Origin: an uncultured Pseudomonadota bacterium
GTDB taxonomy: Bacteria; Myxococcota_A; Polyangia; Fen-1088
Direction of reading: 5' to 3'
NCBI GenBank assembly: GCA_963847705.1
Contig: CAWKBC010000027.1
Span: 672,001 to 736,000, forward strand
Length of the DNA stretch: 64,000 bases
Shown here: positions 32,742 to 48,781 of the stretch, one piece after another
Layout: each line of letters opens with the position of its first letter
Numbering within the stretch: position 1 is the stretch's first letter
The notes under the pieces: generated by a model
Seen by the model: the letters and a program-made list of their open reading frames with translations, nothing else
The model's database searches: none
What the model was told of the DNA's origin: nothing
Translations under genes and position numbers: made by a program

Positions 32742-33692
32742 GTGCAAGCACGAGGTCGAAACGAGGGGCGAGAGGGTGTTGGTGGTGCGGCCGTCGGTGG
32801 CGCACCGGCCTCGCGGGGTTTCTCGGCGCAGCTGCGCGGCGCGAGCCTCTGGGATCTGATCCAGATGGAGTGTCTGGCGCGCTCGCACCGGGTGGTGCAG
32901 GTGATCGGCGAAGGGGGCGTCGGATACCTCTACTTCGATCGCGGACAGGTGGTGCATGCGACCACGGCGCAACGGACAGGTGAGGCCGCGGCGCTGGAGA
33001 TCCTCGACTGGACCAACGGATCGTTCCAGAGCTGTGAGCGTGGCTGGCCGGCCCAAGCGACCATCCGCACCTCGCACGAGGGCCTGATTCTGCAGGCCGC
33101 CCAGCTGCGGGATGAACGCAGCGCCTCGAATCTGGTGGCCTTCCCGGCGCGCGGCGTGGCGGGCGACGACGTCGACCGCTACGAAGAGCTGGAGTTGAGC
33201 GAGCTCGAAGACGAGGACCACGACGAAGAGGAGACCGAGGCGTACGCGGAGGCAGCGCAAGAGGCGCAAAAGGCGCGAGAGGCGAGACAGGCGAGACAGG
33301 AAGGAGCAGCCGAGATGAGGAGCCCTGGGAGCGATGAAGCGGCGCTGACCCCCAAACCGGTGGCGAGCACCGCGAATGGTGCGGGGAGCGCGAACAGTGG
33401 TCGCTCCGAGCTGGGTCTGCTGGGCGACTTCTCGGTCATGATGCGGCTCGGGCCCAACGGCGCGGTGGTGAGCAACCGGGGCGGCAACGAAGAGCTGGCC
33501 GAGACGGTGGCCTACTCGCACCGCCTCTTGCAGTTGACCGGGGAGCTTCTGGGATTCGACAAGTTCTCGGCGGTCGAGTGCGGGTTCGTCGAAGGGCGCT
33601 GCATCGTCTTCTCCGACGGCGACGAGGTCGTGACGCTCCGGCCGCGCCCGGAGGTCAACCTGCAGACCCTGCGCGAGAGGCTGGGGTTGTGA
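32742..33692 (+). CDS. DUF4388 (PatA-N-like) domain protein
   Basis: GFSAQLRGASLWDLIQM...GYLYFDRGQVVHA...ILDWTNGSF; acidic linker. Confidence 0.85.
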   Translation: MQARGRNEGREGVGGAAVGGAPASRGFSAQLRGASLWDLIQMECLARSHRVVQVIGEGGVGYLYFDRGQVVHATTAQRTGEAAALEILDWTNGSFQSCERGWPAQATIRTSHEGLILQAAQLRDERSASNLVAFPARGVAGDDVDRYEELELSELEDEDHDEEETEAYAEAAQEAQKAREARQARQEGAAEMRSPGSDEAALTPKPVASTANGAGSANSGRSELGLLGDFSVMMRLGPNGAVVSNRGGNEELAETVAYSHRLLQLTGELLGFDKFSAVECGFVEGRCIVFSDGDEVVTLRPRPEVNLQTLRERLGL

Positions 33693-34207
33693 CCGGGCAG
33701 GAGGCGGTGGCCCTCGGTGAGGGGGTTCGCACGAGCCTGGCCACGCTCAAGGACGTGGCCGGCATCGCCGGCAGCTTCGTCTGCACGACCAGCGGCCGCT
33801 TGATCGCCCGGGAGATCCCGGCGCTGTTCGAGGATGCCGTCCTGGCCGAGGCCGGAAGCCGCCTGCTGCGCATTGGTGAGACCTTCGCCGCCAGCGGCGA
33901 CACGCTGGAGTTCGCGGTGGTCCGCTATGGAGAGAACCGTCTCTACCTGAAGGCGGTCGCAGGCGGAATGCTCTGCATCGTGGTGGCCGGCGAGGTCAAC
34001 ATGCCGGCGCTCCGCATGGCGGCCAACCTGGTCGGGCGGCGGATCGCGCCCGCGGTGTCCCGGGCCGAGACGGAGCTGCCGCCGCCGGCCTTCGAGGCGC
34101 CGCCGCAACGTCCGACGCCGACGGCGCTGGCGGTGCCGACGAGCGTGCCGCCGCCGGCGTCGCCGGTCGTGCCGGGGCGCCGGTTTCGCGGACGGACAGT
34201 CGACTAG
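33689..34207 (+). CDS. Roadblock/LC7 (MglB-like) domain protein
   Basis: GTGA overlap with the DUF4388 stop; LKDVAGIAGSFV...GRLIA...VNMPALRMAAN; Pro-rich tail. Confidence 0.75.
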   Translation: MTGQEAVALGEGVRTSLATLKDVAGIAGSFVCTTSGRLIAREIPALFEDAVLAEAGSRLLRIGETFAASGDTLEFAVVRYGENRLYLKAVAGGMLCIVVAGEVNMPALRMAANLVGRRIAPAVSRAETELPPPAFEAPPQRPTPTALAVPTSVPPPASPVVPGRRFRGRTVD

Positions 34208-38388: not shown

Positions 38389-39717
38389 ATGCCCCCAGTC
38401 GACCAAACCAACACGGAGACCGAGGAGTCTCCGTCCGGCAACTCTCCGCAAAAGCACGCGGTTCTGCTGATCTCGGCGTTCGGCGCGCGACGCGAGATCC
38501 GCTTGCCGCTGGAGGGCGCGGTGACCATCGGCCGTGGGCCGGCGACCTCGGGTTCGGCGTCCTTCGAGGATCGGCTGCTGTCGCGTGAGCACCTGCGGAT
38601 CACCCGCAAGGCTCGCGGATACGAGATCGAAGACCTGGGGAGCCGGAACGGGACGTTCCTGGACGGCCCGAGGCTCGAGCGGCCGACCCGTCTGTCGGAT
38701 GGGGCCCTGGTCCTGTTCGGACATCATGTCGGCGTCTTCCGGTGGGCCTCCGATGCCGAGCTGGCGGCCCTGCAGCAGGACGCCGCCGCCCCGTTCGGAC
38801 CTCTGCCGACGTTCTCACCCGCGCTGGCGCTGACCTACGCGCGGCTTCGCAAGCTGGCCCGCACCGACGCGGAGCTCTTGCTGGTTGGCGAGACCGGCGT
38901 GGGCAAGAAGGTCTGCGCGCGCGCCCTTCACCGGGCCTCCGGACGCAAGGGGCGGTTCGTGGCCATCAACTGCGCTGCGTTGCCAGCCGCGCTGGTGGAG
39001 AGGGAGCTGTTCGGCGCCTCGGCGGGCGCCGAGGCGACAGCCAAGGGCGCCAGCGTCGGGCTCGTCGAGGCAGCGGAAGGGGGGACGCTGCTGCTGGACG
39101 AGATCGGCGAATTGGTGCCCGCGCTCCAGGCGAAGGTCTTCCGCTTCCTGCAGGATCGCACCTACAGCCCGCTCGGCTCGACCAGACGTCGCCGGGCCGA
39201 CGTCCGGGTGATCGCCTCGACCGCGCGCCAGGGGATCGGCCTGGGAGCCGGCGCGATGCACGGCGACCTGGTCGCGCGGCTGGGGGCCGATCCGATCGCC
39301 ATTTCACCGCTGCGGAAACGGGCGGAGGAGATCCTCTCCCTGGTGGCGCACTTCGGCGAGGGGACCCTTCGCGAGATCGAGCCTGCCGCGGTCCGGGCGT
39401 TGTGCCTCTACGGTTGGCCCCTCAACGTCCGGGAGCTGGAAAAGACCGTGGCCAACGCGCTCGCCCTGACCGTCGGCGTCCGCCTCCGCCTCGACCACCT
39501 GCCGGCCGTCATCCGGGGCGCCCTGCAGCGAGGCGCCCCCATCGAAGCCCACCGCCGCGACCCGCGCCCCGCTCCCAACAGCGCCGAGCTGGAGCAGCTC
39601 TTGAAGCAACATGACGGCAACGTCGCCAGCGTGGCGCGAGCACTCGACCGGAAATGGAACGTGGTCTGGCGGTGGGTCGTGAAGTACAAGCTGCGGCCGG
39701 AGACCTTCCGTGACTGA
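38389..39717 (+). CDS. FHA-domain sigma54-type enhancer-binding protein with degenerate GAFTGA
   Basis: FHA (IGRG, SREH, GSRNGT); AAA+ (GETGVGK, NCAAL, LDEIGE, WPLNVREL); Fis-like HTH. Confidence 0.9.
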   Translation: MPPVDQTNTETEESPSGNSPQKHAVLLISAFGARREIRLPLEGAVTIGRGPATSGSASFEDRLLSREHLRITRKARGYEIEDLGSRNGTFLDGPRLERPTRLSDGALVLFGHHVGVFRWASDAELAALQQDAAAPFGPLPTFSPALALTYARLRKLARTDAELLLVGETGVGKKVCARALHRASGRKGRFVAINCAALPAALVERELFGASAGAEATAKGASVGLVEAAEGGTLLLDEIGELVPALQAKVFRFLQDRTYSPLGSTRRRRADVRVIASTARQGIGLGAGAMHGDLVARLGADPIAISPLRKRAEEILSLVAHFGEGTLREIEPAAVRALCLYGWPLNVRELEKTVANALALTVGVRLRLDHLPAVIRGALQRGAPIEAHRRDPRPAPNSAELEQLLKQHDGNVASVARALDRKWNVVWRWVVKYKLRPETFRD

Positions 39718-42217
39718 GGATGGGAACGATCCGAGGTCGCCTCTCAGTGGAACCGACCTCGAACGACCGTTGCCGACCCCGGGGTCGCCGGCCGTCCCGT
39801 TGCGATCGGGAACGGTCCTGGCTGGTCGATACGAGATCGGCAAGACGATCGGACAGGGAGGCATGGGGGTGGTGGTCCAGGCCTTCGACAGGACACTGGG
39901 CGTCGAGATCGCCATCAAGATCGTCCGCGCGCAGTACGCCGGCGAGCGAGAGTGGAGCGAAAGGCTGGCCCGCGAAGTGAAGCTGGCGCGGCAGATCCAG
40001 CACCCGAACGTCTGCCGCGTCTTCGATTACGCGCAGGCGGACGGCAGGGCCTTCTTGAGCATGGAGCTGGCCGTCGGCGGCACGCTTCGTGACGAGCTTC
40101 GAGCCGACACGACCGCGGCGCGGCCGCTGGCGGCGCGAATCGCCGACGCGCGCGCGCTCGCCGCCGGTCTCGAGGCCATTCATGCGGCCGGGATCGTTCA
40201 CCGCGACATCTCCCCGCAGAACGCGTTGCGGATGAGCGACGGGCGTCTGGTGCTGTCCGACTTCGGCCTGGCCACCGATTCATTCGACGGCACGACCAGC
40301 ATCCGCGGCGGCACCGTGGCGTACATGGCGCCCGAGGTGGCCCGCGGCGGTCGGGCCAGCTTCGCGGCGGATATCTGGGCGCTGGGGGCCGTCATCCACG
40401 AGGCGGTCTTCGGGCAGCGCCTGCAGTGGGATCCGGAGAGCGGAGAGCTGCGCAGCGCGGTCACCAGCCGGCGGTTGACCCGGACGGAGCGCAGCGTCCT
40501 CGAGATCTGCCGCGCCTGCCTGGCGCCGAATCCGGCCCGCCGGCCGCGCGGCGCGGGCGAGGTCGCGGCGCAGCTGACCGAGCAGGGGCTGGCGCGGTCA
40601 GCCGGCCGCTGGCGGCGCCGGCGGGCCGCAACGCTCGCGACCGCCGCGATGTTCGCGGCCGCTGTCATCGTCGCCGAACAGCGGCTCAAGAGCGCGCGTC
40701 AGAGCGCAGCCCAGGTGGTTTCGGCCTCGGTCGATCCGCTCATGATCGTCCCCACCGGCGAGCCGGACGACTGGACCGACGAGTCGAGGGTCCTGGCCGA
40801 GGTGTCCGATCGGATTCGCTGCCTGGTGCCGCTTCCCGACCACCACACCGTCCGGTTCGTGTGGGGCTACCCCGCGCGCGCCGAGGACGTCGATACCCGC
40901 ACGGGGAGAGGCACCCCCTCGCCGCTGGTCCCCAACGCCTACGCCGAGGGATGCCCCGATCTGTCCCCCGACGGCAAACGCCTGGTCTACGCAGGCCATA
41001 CCCCTGACGATCGGGCCTACGCCTTCGTCTCGACGCATGCTGACGGCCGCGACGCGGTCCCGGTGGTGCCGACGGCCGAACCGTCCATGAATTCAGATCC
41101 CGTCTGGCTGAGCAGCGTGGACAGCTTCGTGTACGACGCCGACGCCAACCACGTGGGCGTGTTTTCGCTGGATGCGAAACGGAGCATGGTTCTTCCGACG
41201 ACCAAAGAGCCGTTCTTCTCGGCCTTTCACGGGGTTGTTGGCGATACGATGCTCATCGGCTGGTTGTTGCAAACCGGAGCCGTGGACTTCGATGGGTTTT
41301 CGTATCCGCGATTGGATGAAACGCTCCACTTTCGTTTGCCGCAAATGGTCTTTGATTTGACCCCCGCCGAGGGATCGACCTACTACGGTGCGATCTCCGG
41401 CCAGAGCGGCTTCACGATCGTGCGGATCGAACCGCAGAAGCGTCAGGCGCGCCTCGTCGGGAAGGTCGACCGTCAAGGCGTTCGGTACCCGCTGCTCGTC
41501 GAGGGGGGATTGGTGTTCGTCAGCGTGAGCAGGACCGCGTCGATGGTCTTGCGCACGGGAGCTGGGACGAGGCGCCTTCCTCTGCCGGCCGACGTCCGGG
41601 CGCCGTCCCTTTGTGGAGATCGACTCGTCGCCAAGAGGGTCGTCAATCTCGCGGCAGGCATCGTCTGGCTGGATATGGAGGGCAAGGAGATCGGTCGCGT
41701 CGCGGGCGACGAGAGAACAATGAACCCCAAGTGTTCGGGTGATGGACGGTTGCTCTTCTATGCGGTGTTCGGAGAGGGGCTGAAGCGGTGCCGAGGAACC
41801 GATTGCGAAATGATATTCCGGGGCGATCTCAATGGGTTTGTCCTGTCGCCTGACGACAGCCGGATCGCCTTCGAGTCGTCTGACAGCGGAGGGCATGCTG
41901 TGCGTTGGATTTACGCCGACGGGCGCGCAGGGGTTCATGAGCTGATCGAAACCGACACGCAGTGTCCGCTCCACTGGTCAAATACGAAGGACGTCTGGGT
42001 CGCCTTGCGCAAAGGCCGGAGGGTGACCTGGACGGAGTTCGATACGAACACCAGCCGACCGACCGGCAGGACCTTCCCTGGTACGCGGGACTGTACGGAC
42101 GGGGAAGAAGATCCGGCGTCGCCGGTCAAGGAAGCCGTGGAAGAGCAAGACATCTACCGGGCCCAGCTCCGCTTCCTTCCCGAGAAACACCTACCGGGCC
42201 GAGAGCGATCCCGATAA
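39710..42217 (+). CDS. membrane Ser/Thr kinase with extracytoplasmic TolB-like beta-propeller
   Basis: GQGGMG, IAIK, HRDISPQN, DFG, YMAPE; TM after RRRR; PD40-like PDLSPDGKRLVY and LSPDDSRIAF; overlaps the activator stop. Confidence 0.9.
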   Translation: MTEDGNDPRSPLSGTDLERPLPTPGSPAVPLRSGTVLAGRYEIGKTIGQGGMGVVVQAFDRTLGVEIAIKIVRAQYAGEREWSERLAREVKLARQIQHPNVCRVFDYAQADGRAFLSMELAVGGTLRDELRADTTAARPLAARIADARALAAGLEAIHAAGIVHRDISPQNALRMSDGRLVLSDFGLATDSFDGTTSIRGGTVAYMAPEVARGGRASFAADIWALGAVIHEAVFGQRLQWDPESGELRSAVTSRRLTRTERSVLEICRACLAPNPARRPRGAGEVAAQLTEQGLARSAGRWRRRRAATLATAAMFAAAVIVAEQRLKSARQSAAQVVSASVDPLMIVPTGEPDDWTDESRVLAEVSDRIRCLVPLPDHHTVRFVWGYPARAEDVDTRTGRGTPSPLVPNAYAEGCPDLSPDGKRLVYAGHTPDDRAYAFVSTHADGRDAVPVVPTAEPSMNSDPVWLSSVDSFVYDADANHVGVFSLDAKRSMVLPTTKEPFFSAFHGVVGDTMLIGWLLQTGAVDFDGFSYPRLDETLHFRLPQMVFDLTPAEGSTYYGAISGQSGFTIVRIEPQKRQARLVGKVDRQGVRYPLLVEGGLVFVSVSRTASMVLRTGAGTRRLPLPADVRAPSLCGDRLVAKRVVNLAAGIVWLDMEGKEIGRVAGDERTMNPKCSGDGRLLFYAVFGEGLKRCRGTDCEMIFRGDLNGFVLSPDDSRIAFESSDSGGHAVRWIYADGRAGVHELIETDTQCPLHWSNTKDVWVALRKGRRVTWTEFDTNTSRPTGRTFPGTRDCTDGEEDPASPVKEAVEEQDIYRAQLRFLPEKHLPGRERSR

Positions 42218-42233
42218 TCTATCGCGCGGCTTC

Positions 42234-44750
42234 ATGAGCGGCTCGGGGTCAGGCTCGAAGGACAGCATCACCGAGGTCGCCGAGGAGTCCTTCGTCCGAG
42301 AGCGGCCGCCCGACATCGAGCGGGGGACGGTGCTGGCGGGCCGATACCAGATCGAGGACATCATCGGGAAGGGGGGGAGCGGGATCGTCCTGCGCGTGTT
42401 CGATCGGACGGCGCAGAATGTCGTGGCGCTGAAGGTCCTCAAGACCGAGCTCGCGCGCGACGCCAAGTGGGAGAAGCGATTTTCGCGCGAGCTGCGGCTG
42501 GGCCGGCCGATCCAGCACCCGAATGTCTGTCGTATCTTCGACATCGGAGAGGCCGACGGCCACCGCTTCCTGACGATGGAGATCGCGCAGGGTGGCTCGC
42601 TCCGCGATGAGCTGAAGCGCGGCGGCGCGCCGGAGCGATCCCTGGAAGCAAAGATGGCCGACGCGAGGGGCGTGATCGCCGGCCTGGCCGCTCTGCACGC
42701 CGCGGGCATCGTTCACCGCGACTTCAAGCCCGACAACCTCCTCCGGATGGGAGACGGCCGCCTGGTGCTGTCCGACTTCGGTCTCGCGACCGATGCAGCG
42801 ACCGCGCCCGGCGCGACGGTGTTGATCGGAACTCCGCACTACATGGCTCCGGAGGTCCTCGCGGGCGAGCCCGCGACGAGCCGCTCGGACGTCTGGGCGC
42901 TCGCGGTGGTCCTTCACGAGATCTTCTTCGGCCAGCGACCCGAGCGCCGGTCCGTGAGCTTCGACGGCTCCTCGAGAGGGCCGATTCGACCCAACTCGTC
43001 GACGGAGCGCAGAGTGATGGCCCTGTGCGAACAATGCCTCACAGAGTCGCCTTTGAATCGGCCCGCTGATGCTCGAGAGGTGGCGCGCCTGTTCGATTCC
43101 GAGCGACGTTCGCCCCCCAAGGGTGGGACGGCGGGCAAAAGGGCGGTGCTGGCCGTCTCTGGTCTGGCGGCAGCGGCGGTGCTTTCGATCGCCGTCCGTG
43201 CCTGGAGACCTCATCGGCGAGAGGTGTCGGCCGCACCGACTTCGGCGACGGCCACCGCCCTGCCCACCTCGGCGATAAGATTGGAACCCGGAGGTGACCC
43301 GGTCGATTGGAGCCGGTCGACGCGCGTCATTGGTGAAATCCCGGGGCGGGTGCATTGCTTTTCCGTGATTGACGAGAAGACGGTCAGAATCGTCTGGGGT
43401 TCTCCTCGAAGAGCGGAGGACGTGGAGGTGGAGTCTGGCAGGCGCCGAGTTGCCCGGTTGGCGCCGGAGACCTTCCGTGTCGGCTGTCCCGAGCTGTCGC
43501 CAAATCGAAAGGCGCTGCTCTTTACCGCCCAGACACAGGCGGGCGCTTCGGAGATTCGTCTTTCGATGTCAGACGGGCGAGAGGCGACGTCGGTGACCTC
43601 GGGCGCGGATCCGCTGTGGCTCGGCGGGAACGATGAATTCCTCTACAGCGTCGACCCGGCTCACGCCGCCGTGTTCTCGCTGCCGACCATGAGCTTTGCC
43701 CTGCTCGCCGGGTCGAAGCTCGGGCAACGGCAGGTGATCCTGGACAAAGCGGTGAGCCAGACTGGGAAGGCAGTCGCGTTGTTGGTGATGGCCGACAACT
43801 CGGAGCTCGGGCTCGCCGTTTATGATCAGCCGCCGTTCGAGCAGGCAAAGGTCTTTTCGATTCCTGAGCAGTATCCGATTCAATTTGAACCGCGAAACGA
43901 AGCGATTGTCTTCGCTTACGGCGCCGGTCAATCGGGCTCTGCCTTGATGGAGCTCGATTGGCGTCACGAGACGCTGCGGAGCATCGCCAGGTATCCGGGC
44001 TTCGAGTTGACGCGCGCCGCGCTTTCGGTCGACCAGGCCGCGACCAAGCTTCTGGTGGCGCGCCATTCGTCGAGCGACGTGTGGCTCTACGACGGAACGA
44101 AGAGAAAGAGGCTCACCAATGACGGCGCGGACTATTCCGCGGACCTGTCGCCCTCCGGCGAGCTCCTGGTGAGCAGGCTGGGCTCCGAGGGGTCATTTTC
44201 CATCTGGCGAATAGACGCCGATGGAACCGAGACAAAGCTGACCTCCGGACCGCGCGACGTCGGGCCGGCGTTTTCCCCCGACGGACGGCTCTGGACCTAT
44301 TCCGACTACTCGACCAGGAGCGTCATGCTTTGTTCGAGGACCTCGGGAGAGTGCCACGTCTTGCACCAGGACGAGCTCCTTCCCATCTGGCCGCGGATCT
44401 CTCCTGATGGAACCCGCGTTGCGTACGTGAGTGGGATGGGCTCACCCAAGGTCACGATCATTTCTGCGGCAGACGGGCGGATGCGCAACGCCTGGGACGG
44501 CCAGTATCAATGCGCGCCAATCTGGTCGACAGCGACGACGATCTGGTTTCTCGAGGCCGGCGCCGGGCGTTACTACTGGTCGGAACGCAATGTCGTCTCG
44601 GGTGAGAAGACGGGAAAGCGGGTGGAGGTGTTGACGGAGAACATGGCCCTTGGCGAGATCCAGTGCGGTTCGACGTCGCCCGACTCTCCGGTCTTTCAGC
44701 CCGTGCGCATCGAGAAGGAAGAGATCTCGAAGCTCCTCGTGTCGAGGTAG
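42234..44750 (+). CDS. membrane Ser/Thr kinase with extracytoplasmic TolB-like beta-propeller (paralog)
   Basis: GKGGSG, VALK, HRDFKPDN, DFG, YMAPE; TM AVLAVSGLAAAAVLSIAV; PAFSPDGR, PRISPDGTRVAY. Confidence 0.9.
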   Translation: MSGSGSGSKDSITEVAEESFVRERPPDIERGTVLAGRYQIEDIIGKGGSGIVLRVFDRTAQNVVALKVLKTELARDAKWEKRFSRELRLGRPIQHPNVCRIFDIGEADGHRFLTMEIAQGGSLRDELKRGGAPERSLEAKMADARGVIAGLAALHAAGIVHRDFKPDNLLRMGDGRLVLSDFGLATDAATAPGATVLIGTPHYMAPEVLAGEPATSRSDVWALAVVLHEIFFGQRPERRSVSFDGSSRGPIRPNSSTERRVMALCEQCLTESPLNRPADAREVARLFDSERRSPPKGGTAGKRAVLAVSGLAAAAVLSIAVRAWRPHRREVSAAPTSATATALPTSAIRLEPGGDPVDWSRSTRVIGEIPGRVHCFSVIDEKTVRIVWGSPRRAEDVEVESGRRRVARLAPETFRVGCPELSPNRKALLFTAQTQAGASEIRLSMSDGREATSVTSGADPLWLGGNDEFLYSVDPAHAAVFSLPTMSFALLAGSKLGQRQVILDKAVSQTGKAVALLVMADNSELGLAVYDQPPFEQAKVFSIPEQYPIQFEPRNEAIVFAYGAGQSGSALMELDWRHETLRSIARYPGFELTRAALSVDQAATKLLVARHSSSDVWLYDGTKRKRLTNDGADYSADLSPSGELLVSRLGSEGSFSIWRIDADGTETKLTSGPRDVGPAFSPDGRLWTYSDYSTRSVMLCSRTSGECHVLHQDELLPIWPRISPDGTRVAYVSGMGSPKVTIISAADGRMRNAWDGQYQCAPIWSTATTIWFLEAGAGRYYWSERNVVSGEKTGKRVEVLTENMALGEIQCGSTSPDSPVFQPVRIEKEEISKLLVSR

Positions 44751-44802
44751 ATGCCCGCCCGACGCTTCAAGTCGGGCGGACATCGCGTCTGAGAGGCGCT
44801 GT

Positions 44803-44946
44803 TCAGCAGGGCAGTCCGGGACGGCAAAGCCCCTGCGGCGCCACCGGCAACGGCACCCTCCGGGTCGGGTGAGCCGACACCGTACCCGTGGCAGCAATGG
44901 TGGCGGACGCGGCGAATAACGCGACGAGCATGATCTTCTTCAGCAT
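44803..44946 (-). CDS. 47-aa secreted peptide precursor with C-terminal Cys-X5-Cys
   Basis: MLKKIMLVALFAASATIAATGTVSA|HPTRRVPLPVAPQGLCRPGLPC; RBS cacAAGGAGacgccATG; Sec signal with KK, hydrophobic core and VSA. Confidence 0.8.
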   Translation of the reverse strand: MLKKIMLVALFAASATIAATGTVSAHPTRRVPLPVAPQGLCRPGLPC

Positions 44947-45023
44947 GGCGTCTCCTTGTGGTCTGGTGCTTGCGGAGTCGGAAAACCGCGTCAGAGATCG
45001 ACGCGGCCTTTCGGACTTCCATG

Positions 45024-45039
45024 AGCAACCGACGGACCA
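45024..45039 (-). promoter_or_regulatory. sigma54 -24/-12 promoter of the peptide gene
   Basis: Minus strand TGGTCCGTCGGTTGCT: GG-N10-GC with TTGCT, about 78 nt upstream of the peptide ATG. Confidence 0.65.
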
Positions 45040-45135
45040 ATACGGAGAGCCCAAAACTCCGGGCTTTGCCGGGGAAAAACGGACGTTTTCGGGGCGCGGT
45101 TTTATATCCGTTTACGCAAGCGGAGTTACGTTTTA

Positions 45136-46536
45136 ATGTTCGGCGGATCTGCTGTGATCACGCCCAACGAAAGCACCACCTTCGTTCCGCGCCACGAGGC
45201 GTCAGACGACCCCGTGAAGGTTCCTCTGTTGTTGGTTGTGGGGGACAACCGAGGGAATGTTCCGCTGGGGGCTGACAGAGTTGTCACGTTCACCGGGTCA
45301 CTGGTCGTCGGCCGCCGCGAGCCAACGCAGGGGGAGCCGGGGCAGTCGTCCCTGGTCCTGCCGGACCGGATGATCTCGTCGCAGCACATGGCGATCACCC
45401 CTGCGCCGGACGACGGGGTCTACGAGCTCACCGACCTGTCGAGCACCAACGGCACGATCGTCGACGGAGAGCCGGTCGAGACGACCGTCCGCTTGCGGGA
45501 CGGCTCGGTCATCTTCGTGGGGAGCCACGTGCTCGTGTTTCGGGTCACGACGGTCGCTCAGCGGACGGCGATCGAAGCCGAGCTCGCGAATCCCCTGGGA
45601 CCCGTGGCCACGGCCAACCCGGCCTTTGCCATGGTCTGTCAGAAGCTGCGCAAGCTGGCGGCGGCGGGCGAGGAGCTGCTGCTGACAGGCGAGACCGGCG
45701 TCGGCAAGGAGGTCTATGCCGAGGCGGTCCACCGGGCCAGCGGTCGGACGGGACGGTTCGTGGCCATCAACTGCGCCGCCATCCCCCGCGAGCTGGTGGA
45801 GACCGAGCTCTTCGGTTACGCGCGGGGCGCGCACTCGCAGGCGGCGATGGCCAAGGGCGGGATCATCGAGGAGGCGGAGAACGGGACGCTGTTCCTCGAC
45901 GAGATCGGCGAGATGGCGCCCGAGCTTCAGACCAAGCTGCTTCGCTTCACCCAGGACCGAATGTTGTCGCCGGTCGGCGGGCTGCGCGCGCGGAGGATCG
46001 AGACGCGCATCGTCGCCGCCACCAGCCGCACCGCCGCGCCGTCACAGTCGGGAAGCCTGGGGCTGCGCGTCGATCTGGCGGCGCGGCTCGGCGCCGAGCC
46101 GATCCGGATCCCGCCGCTGCGCGAGCGGGTCGAGGATCTGGGCGCGCTGGCCAGCTATCTTCTGGGCGCGCGGAAGAAGCCGATCGAGCTGACCGCGTTC
46201 CAGGCGCTCTGTCTTTACTCCTGGCCGGGCAACGTCCGCGAGCTCGGCAAGGTCGTGACCTCGGCCGAGGCGCTGGCGCGCGACAGCGATCGGATCGCCA
46301 CCGAGCATCTGCCAGGGACGATCTCGGCGGCGCCGCGGCTGAAGGGCTCGGCGGGGGGGCGCCGAAAATCGCGTCCGCCCCCGGACGCAGCCGAGCTGGA
46401 GGCGTTGATCCGCCGATTTCAGGGCAACATGATGCGCGTCTCGCGCGAGCTCGACCGCAAGCCGGCGCTGGTCTACCGCTGGGCCAAGCGGTTCGGCCTG
46501 AAAGCGGACGACTTTCGCGCTAAAAAAGAGGCCTGA
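45136..46536 (+). CDS. FHA-domain sigma54-type enhancer-binding protein (GAHSQA loop)
   Basis: FHA (VGRR, SSQH, SSTNGT); GETGVGKE, ETELFG, FLDEIGE, WPGNVREL; HTH; divergent from the peptide gene. Confidence 0.92.
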   Translation: MFGGSAVITPNESTTFVPRHEASDDPVKVPLLLVVGDNRGNVPLGADRVVTFTGSLVVGRREPTQGEPGQSSLVLPDRMISSQHMAITPAPDDGVYELTDLSSTNGTIVDGEPVETTVRLRDGSVIFVGSHVLVFRVTTVAQRTAIEAELANPLGPVATANPAFAMVCQKLRKLAAAGEELLLTGETGVGKEVYAEAVHRASGRTGRFVAINCAAIPRELVETELFGYARGAHSQAAMAKGGIIEEAENGTLFLDEIGEMAPELQTKLLRFTQDRMLSPVGGLRARRIETRIVAATSRTAAPSQSGSLGLRVDLAARLGAEPIRIPPLRERVEDLGALASYLLGARKKPIELTAFQALCLYSWPGNVRELGKVVTSAEALARDSDRIATEHLPGTISAAPRLKGSAGGRRKSRPPPDAAELEALIRRFQGNMMRVSRELDRKPALVYRWAKRFGLKADDFRAKKEA

Positions 46537-46606: not shown

Positions 46607-47713
46607 ATGGACGACCTCTCGCAATTTCTGCGTCCCGCCGGTGGCGGAATTCACACCGTGAGCACGGGCCGCGCCGCGCGCGAATCGTTGCAGAAGGCGC
46701 TCTATGACGCGCGCGACGACGTTGAGGTGCAGGCCAAGTGGCGCACTGCGCTGGCGTCCATCGGCATGGCGCGCGTGGCCATCCTGGGCATCCCCTCCGA
46801 CTGCGGCGCGGGGCTGACGCGCGGCGCTGCATTCGGACCCGAGGCCGTGCGGGCGGCGCTGCTCCGGCAGGTGCCGGACTTCCCCGCCCGTGCTGCCCGC
46901 GCGGGGATCGTCGACGTCGGCGATCTCTTCGTGGTGCCGCAGCTCCTGACCGACGACATGCTGAGCGAGGAGCAACGTCGCCGGACCCGCGCGGTGCTCT
47001 ACGGCCCGTCCGCCGCAAACGGCGATTGGCCCGTGGCGCCGCTGACCATTGCCGAACGGGTGGTCGATCAATTGCTGCGTGCGCGTCCCGGATTGCGAAT
47101 CTTCATGCTGGGGGGCGATCACTCGGTGGCCTGGCCCGTGGTGGCGGCGCTGGCCCGGCATCTCTCCGAGCCATGGGCGATCGTTCACGCTGACGCCCAC
47201 ACCGATCTCTTGCCCGAGCGTCTCGGCGTCCGGATCTGCTTCGCCACCTGGGCCTACCACGCCAACGAGCTCCTGGGCCGGGGCGGACGGCTGGTGCAGA
47301 TCGGCGTGCGGACGTCGTCGCGCACCAAGGAACATTGGGAGTCGACGCTGGGGGTCCGGCAGTTCTGGGCCGACGAGGTGGGCGCCCGCGGCGCCGCGGT
47401 GATCGACGAGGTGATCCGACATCTGCAAGCGATGGGCATCCGGCGCGTCTATCTGTCGAACGACATCGACGCCACCGACAGCGAGGCCGCTCCTTCCACC
47501 GGCGCGCCCGAGCCGAACGGCCTGACACCCGACTTCGTGCGGGCGTTGATCGCCCGGATCGGCGCGGCGTTCGCGCTCCTCGGCGCCGACGTGGTCGAAG
47601 TGGCCCCCTCGATCGGCAGCGCCGACGACGCGCGCCGGACCAGCGACGTCGCGGCCTCGTACATGCGCGCCTCGCTGGCGGTGCTGGCGGACGCGCCCGA
47701 GTTGATCCCGTAG
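46607..47713 (+). CDS. agmatinase/arginase family ureohydrolase
   Basis: GAAFGPEAVR, GGDHS, HADAHTD, SNDID, DVVEVAP. Confidence 0.92.
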   Translation: MDDLSQFLRPAGGGIHTVSTGRAARESLQKALYDARDDVEVQAKWRTALASIGMARVAILGIPSDCGAGLTRGAAFGPEAVRAALLRQVPDFPARAARAGIVDVGDLFVVPQLLTDDMLSEEQRRRTRAVLYGPSAANGDWPVAPLTIAERVVDQLLRARPGLRIFMLGGDHSVAWPVVAALARHLSEPWAIVHADAHTDLLPERLGVRICFATWAYHANELLGRGGRLVQIGVRTSSRTKEHWESTLGVRQFWADEVGARGAAVIDEVIRHLQAMGIRRVYLSNDIDATDSEAAPSTGAPEPNGLTPDFVRALIARIGAAFALLGADVVEVAPSIGSADDARRTSDVAASYMRASLAVLADAPELIP

Positions 47714-47722
47714 GATAGGGCC

Positions 47723-48781
47723 ATGGCGCGCGAACCGGACGACGATGGCGAAGGCGAGGGGGGCGATCCCCGGGTCGAAGCGGCCTGGCAGGCGCTCGAG
47801 AGCGGCGACGTCGCGGAGGCGCGGCGGCTGGCCGAGGCGCTCGACGCGAAGTCGCCGGAGACGTTGCTGTTGCTCGGCGCCTGCTGCCGCGAAGAGGAGG
47901 ACGACGCCCAGGCGATCGCGATCCTGAAACGGGCCGCCGCGGCCGATCCCGAGTGGGCGACGCCGGAGCTCTGGCTCGGTGAGATCCTGGCCGGCGATCC
48001 GGAGGCGACGGCGGAGGCGCTCCGGCATGCCACGCGCGCGCTCGATCTGACGGACGACGAGACGGAGTTCCTGTCGGCGGTCGCGCTCAAGGCCGGTCTC
48101 GAGACCGAGATGGGCGAGACCGAGGAGGCGAAGCGGACCCTGGCGGAGCTGCCGCCGCCCGAGGTCCGGCTGGAGGATCTGGACCTGGCGCTGGAGATCG
48201 CGGACCTGCAGCTGGCGCTGGGCGATCCCGAGGCGGCGCGCGAACGCCTGCTCCTTTTGTGCGAGGCGAGCCCGACGATGGCGGACGCCTGGTACGCGCT
48301 TGGCTGCGCGGCCGAGCAGCTGGAGGACGAGACCGAGATGCGGGCCGCCTGGAAGCGCACCTGGGCGCTCGATGCCGCGCCGACCGGTGGCGATGTCGCG
48401 GCGGGGGAGGCCGAGCGGCTGCCCGAGGCGGAGGTCGCGGCGGTCGCCGAATCGGCGCTGGAGGAGCTCCCCGAGCGGGCGCGCGCGCTTCTGCAGGGGA
48501 TCCCCATCGTCATCGCCGAGCTGCCGGCCGAGGCCGACGTGGCCACCGGGCTCGATCCGCGGGTGCTGGGTCTGTTCAGCGGGACGGCGCACGGCGATGG
48601 CGCCACCGGGCTGGGCGGTCAGCCCGGGCTCACTCAGATCGTGCTCTTCCGGCGGAACCTCGAGCGGGCGGCCCGCGACGAGGATGAGCTTCGCGAGGAG
48701 ATCCGGACCACCTTGCTGCACGAGACCGGACATTTTTTCGGTCTCGACGACGCGGCGCTGGAGGAGATCGGGCTCGGGTAA
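47723..48781 (+). CDS. TPR protein fused to a Zincin_1-type metallopeptidase
   Basis: TPR-like helices; LGLFSG, IVLFRRN, TTLLHETGHFFG. Confidence 0.85.
   Translation: MAREPDDDGEGEGGDPRVEAAWQALESGDVAEARRLAEALDAKSPETLLLLGACCREEEDDAQAIAILKRAAAADPEWATPELWLGEILAGDPEATAEALRHATRALDLTDDETEFLSAVALKAGLETEMGETEEAKRTLAELPPPEVRLEDLDLALEIADLQLALGDPEAARERLLLLCEASPTMADAWYALGCAAEQLEDETEMRAAWKRTWALDAAPTGGDVAAGEAERLPEAEVAAVAESALEELPERARALLQGIPIVIAELPAEADVATGLDPRVLGLFSGTAHGDGATGLGGQPGLTQIVLFRRNLERAARDEDELREEIRTTLLHETGHFFGLDDAALEEIGLG

Follow-up and report, generated by a model that had tools for sequence, protein, structure and literature searches.

A window of 64,000 nucleotides (contig CAWKBC010000027.1 of assembly GCA_963847705.1, positions 672,001 to 736,000) from an uncultured bacterium of the class Polyangia (GTDB lineage Myxococcota_A; Polyangia; Fen-1088) contains five adjacent genes between its positions 38,389 and 46,536 (Table 1). 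Two encode transcription activators in which an FHA domain is joined to a sigma54-type AAA+ domain and a helix-turn-helix (HTH), two encode Hanks-type Ser/Thr kinases with a large C-terminal ectodomain, and one encodes a small peptide precursor. A preliminary description of this DNA had placed the same five genes here, with an 8-bp overlap between activator 1 and kinase 1 and a 16-bp gap between the two kinases. This layout is borne out, as are the FHA and sigma54 AAA+ domains of both activators and the Pkinase and PD40 domains of both kinases (Pfam). Also present, as proposed, is the small signal-bearing Cys-loop peptide gene, convergent to kinase 2 and head-to-head with activator 2. The conserved unit, a real and undescribed cassette of 4.3 kb, consists of kinase 2, the peptide gene and activator 2. 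The signalling circuit first proposed for all five genes would narrow to these three, whereas kinase 1 and activator 1 are accessory and variable.

Table 1. Genes and other features of the locus, in window coordinates.
Feature	Position	Strand	Basis or remark
FHA activator 1 (FHA-AAA+-HTH), accessory	38389..39717	+	Pfam FHA and Sigma54_activat
Kinase 1, Hanks-type, accessory receptor	39710..42217	+	Pfam Pkinase and PD40; 8 Cys in ectodomain
Kinase 1, predicted transmembrane segment	40625-40675	+	Hydropathy
Kinase 1, predicted propeller ectodomain	from about 40745	+	Domain search
Kinase 2, core receptor kinase	42234..44750	+	Pfam Pkinase and PD40
Kinase 2, N-terminal S-I-T-E-V motif (Thr13)	42264..42278	+	Predicted autophosphorylation and FHA docking site
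Kinase 2, predicted transmembrane segment	43143-43196	+	
Kinase 2, predicted tandem double beta-propeller	43269-44747	+	6 Cys, polymorphic
Peptide precursor gene, 47 residues	44803..44946	-	Ribosome-binding site, signal-like N-terminus, codon-position pattern
Peptide, predicted Sec signal (codons 1-25)	44872-44946	-	Followed by Pro-rich spacer
Peptide, C-terminal G-L-C-x5-C loop	44806-44826	-	
Sigma54 -24/-12 site of peptide gene, TGGTCCGTCGGTTGCT	45024..45039	-	Present in 45/45 loci
Conserved 17-bp element, candidate activator binding site	45092..45108	-	70 bp upstream of the -24 GG
Candidate sigma70-type promoter of activator 2, TTTACG-17-TAATGT	45111..45139	+	By eye, close-relative alignment
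FHA activator 2 (FHA-AAA+-HTH), core	45154..46536	+	Probable start GTG 45154; ATG 45136 in frame

Conservation of the cassette is evident from the 89 available genomes of the family. A profile of the peptide matches 46 of them; the match in genome G453 was rejected as a false hit to an ammonium transporter, and local inspection of G453 and G500 uncovered a divergent peptide in each. In all, 47 of the 89 genomes carry the gene, one copy per genome, with two copies (G001 and G019) that look frameshifted. The ectodomain profile matches 51 of the 89. Outside the family, the peptide profile found nothing in 254 genomes of the other families of the class, and the ectodomain profile gave only two short, weak matches in 400 genomes of the other families of the phylum, with three candidates scored per genome. 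Contig ends account for the few exceptions to the layout, in which the peptide gene lies tail-to-tail with the ectodomain (45 of 47 cases) and head-to-head with activator 2 (46 of 47). Orthologs of activator 2 (E below 1e-195) occur in 49 genomes, and the three without a peptide gene are cut by a contig end at the 5ʹ end of the activator; no complete kinase 2–activator 2 locus without a peptide was found among the 49. Two genera lack both peptide and ectodomain (0/13 and 0/11 genomes), and in distant genera the triad is kept amid unrelated neighbourhoods. Metagenome matches include the peptide, the sigma54 site and the ectodomain in 3 of 3 cases, with the activator visible in two. The co-occurrence of peptide, kinase family and activator expected from the preliminary description is therefore found across one family; because kin are not independent, the locus counts show conservation rather than many separate events.

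Several features mark the small open reading frame (ORF) as a genuine gene. It is preceded by an AAGGAG ribosome-binding site (44952-44957), and in codons 2-12 its homologs differ 2040, 1292 and 3327 times at codon positions 1, 2 and 3, respectively, the pattern of a coding gene. Among 30 short signal-peptide-like ORFs passing a genome-wide filter, it is the sole one with two C-terminal Cys residues or with a sigma54 site, and no further peptide genes were recovered by ORF filters, either genome-wide or beside orphan kinases. The precursor is predicted to be exported by Sec, cleaved after Ala25 and closed as a disulfide loop. Its conserved part comprises only about 9-12 residues. The window peptide matches no Pfam or NCBIfam family, 36 homologs have no meaningful match in NCBIfam, and the ESM Atlas returned unnamed leads only (0.80-0.81). 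The peptide mRNA has a hairpin in its 5ʹ leader (44965-45012, minus strand; z -2.3), which recurs in many relatives with altered sequence and is weak across loci (median z -1.0; z below -2 in 12/45). In the three most distant loci (L052:7108-7227, L200:7619-7801 and L205:3467-3646), signal and layout are kept, and the cores are unrelated, with two to six Cys residues otherwise spaced, which suggests further peptide classes.

The peptide promoter is as constant as the gene order. The motif GG-N8-TTGC occurs 44-147 bp ahead of the peptide start in each of the 45 loci for which sufficient upstream sequence is available (G472, at a contig end, was left out, and G001 was not included), compared with a mean of 1.3 in shuffled controls and 2 on the opposite strand. 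The promoter fits the sigma54 consensus, TGGCACG-N4-TTGC(T/A), and the pattern of upstream activator sites given in the part of the source drawn on here (PMC7910581). The conserved 17-bp element is found 67-71 bp upstream in 38 of the 45 loci and at 58-59 bp, one helical turn nearer, in four others; we take it to be a candidate activator binding site. A sigma70 consensus scan called no site ahead of activator 2, and the candidate promoter listed in Table 1 was recognized by eye.

Activator 2 has the features of an enhancer-binding protein: a PF00158 match, Walker A and B motifs in the AAA+ domain and a C-terminal HTH, which appears as a helical domain in the structural model. In that model the AAA+ domain is of low confidence (mean predicted local distance difference test [pLDDT] score 65), as is the N-terminal tail, consistent with disorder. 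Its start is probably the GTG codon, because several orthologs have in-frame stops just upstream. Six residues of its FHA domain (G59, R60, S81, H84, N105 and G106) are invariant in 12 sequences, as in a phosphothreonine reader. Short motifs in the N-terminal tails of the two core proteins point to what this domain may read. Kinase 2 tails contain S-[VIF]-T-x-V in 32 of 34 sequences and activator 2 tails contain S-[TVI]-T-x-V in 42 of 45 (E-S-T-T-F-V in the window), a shared S-x-T-x-V pattern that was picked after the tail sequences had been viewed and that is likely an FHA docking site. The tails of kinase 1 and activator 1 bear other Thr motifs.

Both kinases match PF00069 (E = 5e-43 and 2e-47) and have the Gly loop, Lys, HRD, DFG and APE motifs, one transmembrane segment and a C-terminal ectodomain, the build of a Hanks-type receptor kinase. 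The catalytic motifs, first described as intact in both, are so in kinase 2 (HRDFKPDN), whereas the catalytic loop of kinase 1 reads HRDISPQN, with Ser in place of Lys. The single transmembrane helix held up in each: one Arg-flanked hydrophobic segment separates kinase domain and ectodomain, and such a single segment (hydropathy 1.1-2.8) occurs in 37 kinase-ectodomain ORFs. Ectodomains carry 4-10 Cys residues, mostly six or eight, and six Cys columns are invariant or nearly so, as expected in an oxidising compartment. The ectodomain model is all-beta (mean pLDDT 91.7), and its best structural match is periplasmic TolB (Z 19.8; root-mean-square deviation 3.0; 234 residues aligned). Because single propellers cover about half of the model and the Foldseek list is filled by tandem-propeller proteins such as LRP6, at low template-modelling scores, the ectodomain is predicted to consist of two beta-propellers in tandem; the extracytoplasmic propeller of the preliminary description is thus retained as a fold and doubled in number. 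That fold is shared with other proteins and shows no function. By sequence, the TolB family TIGR02800 scores 54 bits on the ectodomain against a cut-off of 343, and the ESM Atlas led to PD40/TolB-like clusters, mostly from Acidobacteriota. No further paralog of the two window ectodomains exists in the genome; of the 150 top-ranking representatives at 50% identity, more than 100 are ectodomain-family proteins, some of them fragments. In two genomes without the cassette (L214 and L215), a kinase ORF is followed by a separate ORF of about 350 residues that matches the ectodomain start only.

The peptide core and the ectodomain form one hypervariable block between conserved flanks. At the same 16 loci, mean identity is 68% in the kinase domain and 38% in the ectodomain; DNA identity to close relatives falls over both ectodomains and the mature peptide and recovers in the kinase domains, the promoter and the activator. 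The G+C content is 0.62-0.65 over the ectodomains and peptide region (window 41200-45400), 0.69 in the kinase 2 domain and about 0.70 in the flanks. Synonymous divergence (dS) of the ectodomain is several times that of the activator in most close pairs (for example, 1.86 versus 0.35), which argues for allele exchange rather than relaxed selection alone; in one genus (g8), dS is near background and the cores are nearly identical. Loci L189 and L191 share 91% of their DNA over the activator 5ʹ end and promoter, 97% over the signal (82 of 84 bases at the peptide gene start) and 92% over the kinase, compared with 62% in the spacer, 56% in the core, 44-48% in the ectodomain and 41% in the transmembrane segment. 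Since the peptide gene start and the kinase are near-identical and the DNA between them is only 41-62% identical, one boundary of exchange lies inside the peptide gene, between signal and core.

Some further comparisons suggest that core and receptor vary together. The L189 ectodomain clusters with two from another genus that have the same three-residue loop; the three loci with such loops form one ectodomain clade (Shimodaira–Hasegawa-like approximate likelihood ratio support 97) but require three changes on the activator tree. The closest relative of the window by activator (96%) has a different core, QGFCPRAFC. Ectodomain identity rises with the similarity of the cores across 13 disjoint close pairs (rho 0.79; partial 0.70, p = 0.005).

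The genes upstream of the core are less stable. The number of kinase 1 copies next to kinase 2 ranges from zero to two among relatives, and kinases of this type are also encoded at other sites that have no peptide gene. Several relatives (L043:8649-9425, L054:9637-10644 and L221:8158-11572) have a truncated kinase 1, lack it or have activator 1 in duplicate, consistent with frequent gain and loss of this accessory module. In activator 1 the L1 loop reads GAEATA (GAH-x-TA in most orthologs), and its Walker A sequence, GKKV, also deviates from the orthologs; because of these differences, activator 1 may be impaired or degenerate in the window genome. Farther out, arginase-family and tetratricopeptide repeat (TPR)/zincin metallopeptidase genes (46607-48781) follow activator 2 in most loci and not in the most distant genera. 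Upstream of an ammonium transporter, at 32742-34207, are two small genes that we take to be DUF4388-type and roadblock-like.

Taken together, kinase 2, the peptide and activator 2 probably form an allele-specific peptide autoinduction or self-recognition loop with a Hanks-type kinase as its receptor. The order of the genes, their conservation, the motifs of promoter and tails and the variable block are read directly from the genomes, and fold and topology are predicted; binding, phosphorylation, activation and action between cells would then proceed as follows. After Sec export, cleavage after Ala25 and disulfide closure, the looped peptide would be bound by the double propeller of the kinase 2 allele that matches it. 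Kinase 2 would autophosphorylate the Thr of its own N-terminal S-x-T-x-V, and the phosphorylated tail would recruit the FHA domain of activator 2. The kinase may then phosphorylate the same motif in the activator 2 tail, by analogy with PknG and GarA/OdhI, and activator 2, acting at the element 70 bp upstream, would switch on the peptide gene through its sigma54 promoter. Swapping a single stretch of about 1.8 kb that extends from the peptide spacer as far as the kinase transmembrane segment would create new specificities, and kinase 1-type receptors, which have no peptide gene of their own, could listen to other alleles. The fuller version of this reading is held more tentatively, as a serious possibility: a bacterial peptide hormone, in which a disulfide-loop peptide is read between cells by a single-pass receptor Ser/Thr kinase, with FHA-sigma54 autoinduction, dozens of exchangeable self alleles and eavesdropping orphan receptors.

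Several results weigh against such a loop. In a partial Mantel test over 34 loci, the association of core with ectodomain given the activator was non-significant (r = 0.12, p = 0.13), and an 18-locus result (r = 0.31, p = 0.035) was not upheld at this larger number; the correlation of the signal peptide with the ectodomain is no weaker (r = 0.18, p = 0.014, 34 loci). Loci L031 and L033 have near-identical cores and ectodomains of only 50% identity. An approximately unbiased test rejected the grouping of the window with L035 (p = 0.029) but did not reject L189 with its own genus (p = 0.144), both of these vertical groupings having been chosen after the tree was seen. Loop length changes 11 times on the ectodomain tree versus 13 on the activator tree, a small gain, and linkage by itself can yield co-transfer of adjacent genes. 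In a genome-wide promoter scan, the score of the peptide promoter is matched by no other, so that no downstream output besides the peptide gene was identified; nor did a wider regulon appear among 2146 loose sigma54-like sites, ranked by a profile that included the window's own site, which places first partly by construction. Sec export in a two-membrane bacterium would bring the peptide first into the periplasm of the producing cell, and no conserved way out or in is seen: among 26 neighbours at nine distant loci, which are mutually unrelated, there is no conserved exporter, outer-membrane channel or dedicated peptidase.

The activator itself adds to these points, since its L1 loop reads GAHSQA in place of the canonical GAFTGA, a motif important for contact with sigma54 and carried by most other activators of the genome. 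GAHSQA is present in nearly all activator 2 orthologs read, with GAHSEA or GSHSQA in the three most distant. The joint conservation of this odd loop and the -24/-12 site suggests that the loop is functional. A paralogous sigma54 matching GAHSQA was considered and rejected, as a single, normal-looking rpoN was found in the genome, which is 85% complete. Two further activators of the same genome have a GAHSTA loop (C14:152380-153582 and C30:34434-35879; L067 and L068), and the one on C14 is preceded by a divergent transmembrane kinase whose kinase domain is similar and whose C-terminal part is TPR-like. Given these genes, GAHS-type activators look like a lineage-wide subfamily paired with kinases of this kind.

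The missing exit or entry route keeps alive an explanation confined to single cells, one that shares the binding step. The peptide would bind kinase 2 of its own cell in the periplasm and hold it off (or on), and peptide loss through envelope damage, redox change or attack would switch the kinase, whereupon activator 2 would raise peptide production; the polymorphism would then reflect conflict with mimics or antagonists and not kin signalling. The Sec signal does lead to the predicted location of the ectodomain, whose best structural match is a periplasmic protein, and the peptide promoter is the only high-scoring target. However, the abundance of ectodomain-family proteins among the best representatives, the block exchange and the extra peptide-less receptors fit interaction between strains better, and this explanation is considered unlikely. 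Weaker still, and very doubtful, is a reading in which proximity accounts for the co-variation: the kinase would sense some other variable ligand (a phage, prey or surface molecule), and the peptide would be a sigma54-controlled output that never touches the receptor. The non-significant Mantel test and the mismatched pairs agree with it, as do kinase 1 ectodomains, which are as variable as those of kinase 2 though without a peptide gene, but it accommodates poorly both the exchange boundary between signal and core in L189/L191 and the absence of any complete kinase 2–activator 2 locus without a peptide. Similarly improbable, and likewise weaker than the single-cell explanation, is an antimicrobial or competition effector whose synthesis is self-induced and for which kinase 2 would act as sensor or sink: the peptide is small, polymorphic, Cys-looped and rich in Pro, and its gene has a strong ribosome-binding site and a sigma54 promoter of its own, but the peptide's short conserved part and want of family matches speak against this, and kinase 2 and activator 2 flank the precursor directly, with no modifying enzyme, ABC exporter or small immunity gene conserved beside it, so that the neighbours scanned do not resemble a cluster for a bacteriocin or a ribosomally synthesized and post-translationally modified peptide.

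The autoinduction loop favoured here resembles several known systems in part. The staphylococcal agr locus (AgrBDCA) combines a polymorphic cyclic peptide and its cognate receptor in one locus, with autoinduction, divergent promoters and specificity groups, as described in the part of the source drawn on here (PMC8768832). The cassette is similar in that the peptide and its proposed receptor share one locus and in its proposed autoinduction logic. Unlike agr, its receptor is a Hanks-type Ser/Thr kinase rather than a histidine kinase, and its transducer is an FHA sigma54 activator rather than a response regulator. There is no AgrB family member among nine window proteins or the 26 neighbours scanned, and a predicted disulfide ring behind a Sec signal takes the place of the AgrD-type thiolactone precursor. 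Dozens of alleles are seen here, versus four groups, and the host is two-membraned, to judge from its class. The cassette accordingly falls outside agr on receptor, transducer and processing (Pkinase, FHA and Sigma54_activat domains; a precursor without family match).

Parts of the proposed relay have counterparts among other kinases, again as far as the portions of the sources used here describe them. In the PknG–GarA/OdhI system, autophosphorylation sites in the kinase N-terminal tail dock the FHA substrate, which has an ETTS Thr motif ahead of its FHA domain (PMC8546545), and PknD has an extracellular six-bladed propeller as sensor (PMC2877116). The cassette would share the N-terminal Thr motifs and FHA partner of the former and the propeller sensor of the latter. 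However, those kinases control metabolism or are described without a peptide ligand, whereas in the cassette the FHA partner is an activator of transcription and the predicted propeller is tandem and TolB-like. Self-recognition in myxobacteria has been attributed to TraA/TraB, a highly polymorphic cell-envelope receptor that sets recognition groups (PMC12288465). TraA is a homophilic outer-membrane adhesin, in contrast to the predicted inner-membrane kinase found here, with its separate small partner and transcriptional output. TolB has a similar propeller fold, but the ectodomain is fused to a kinase, and no tol-pal genes are adjacent. FHA-AAA+-HTH activators reportedly belong to the sigma54 regulon of Myxococcus xanthus (Jelsbak 2005, by its title), and a link to Ser/Thr kinases is said to have been proposed for them. 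Activator 2 has the same build and differs in its GAHSQA loop and linked peptide gene; we know of no linked peptide input for the M. xanthus proteins.

In the literature searched, which mostly excluded subscription papers, neither a bacterial peptide-ligand receptor Ser/Thr kinase loop nor a description of the cassette was found. The peptide family, the ectodomain family and their pairing match nothing described there; the kinase-FHA-sigma54 half has been proposed before, and the logic resembles agr. To our knowledge, bacterial peptide signals are read by histidine kinases or by cytoplasmic RRNPP proteins, and most myxobacterial Ser/Thr kinases have no known ligand. The cassette brings together a receptor kinase and its candidate ligand, a candidate phospho-site, an FHA activator and the presumed target promoter; the activator has a non-canonical GAHSQA loop and adjoins a conserved sigma54 site, and dozens of allele pairs found in nature would serve as internal controls for specificity. 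Both the activating input of Hanks-type receptor kinases in Myxococcota and the relay from such kinases to sigma54 by FHA activators become directly testable with it; if specificity holds, it would also provide a set of orthogonal peptide-receptor pairs. In plants, SCR and SRK are a linked, co-inherited pair of polymorphic Cys peptide and single-pass receptor Ser/Thr kinase. The likeness is one of analogy only and implies no homology, as ectodomain fold and downstream pathway differ; if the peptide-hormone reading is true, the cassette would be a bacterial counterpart of plant self-recognition by peptide and receptor kinase.

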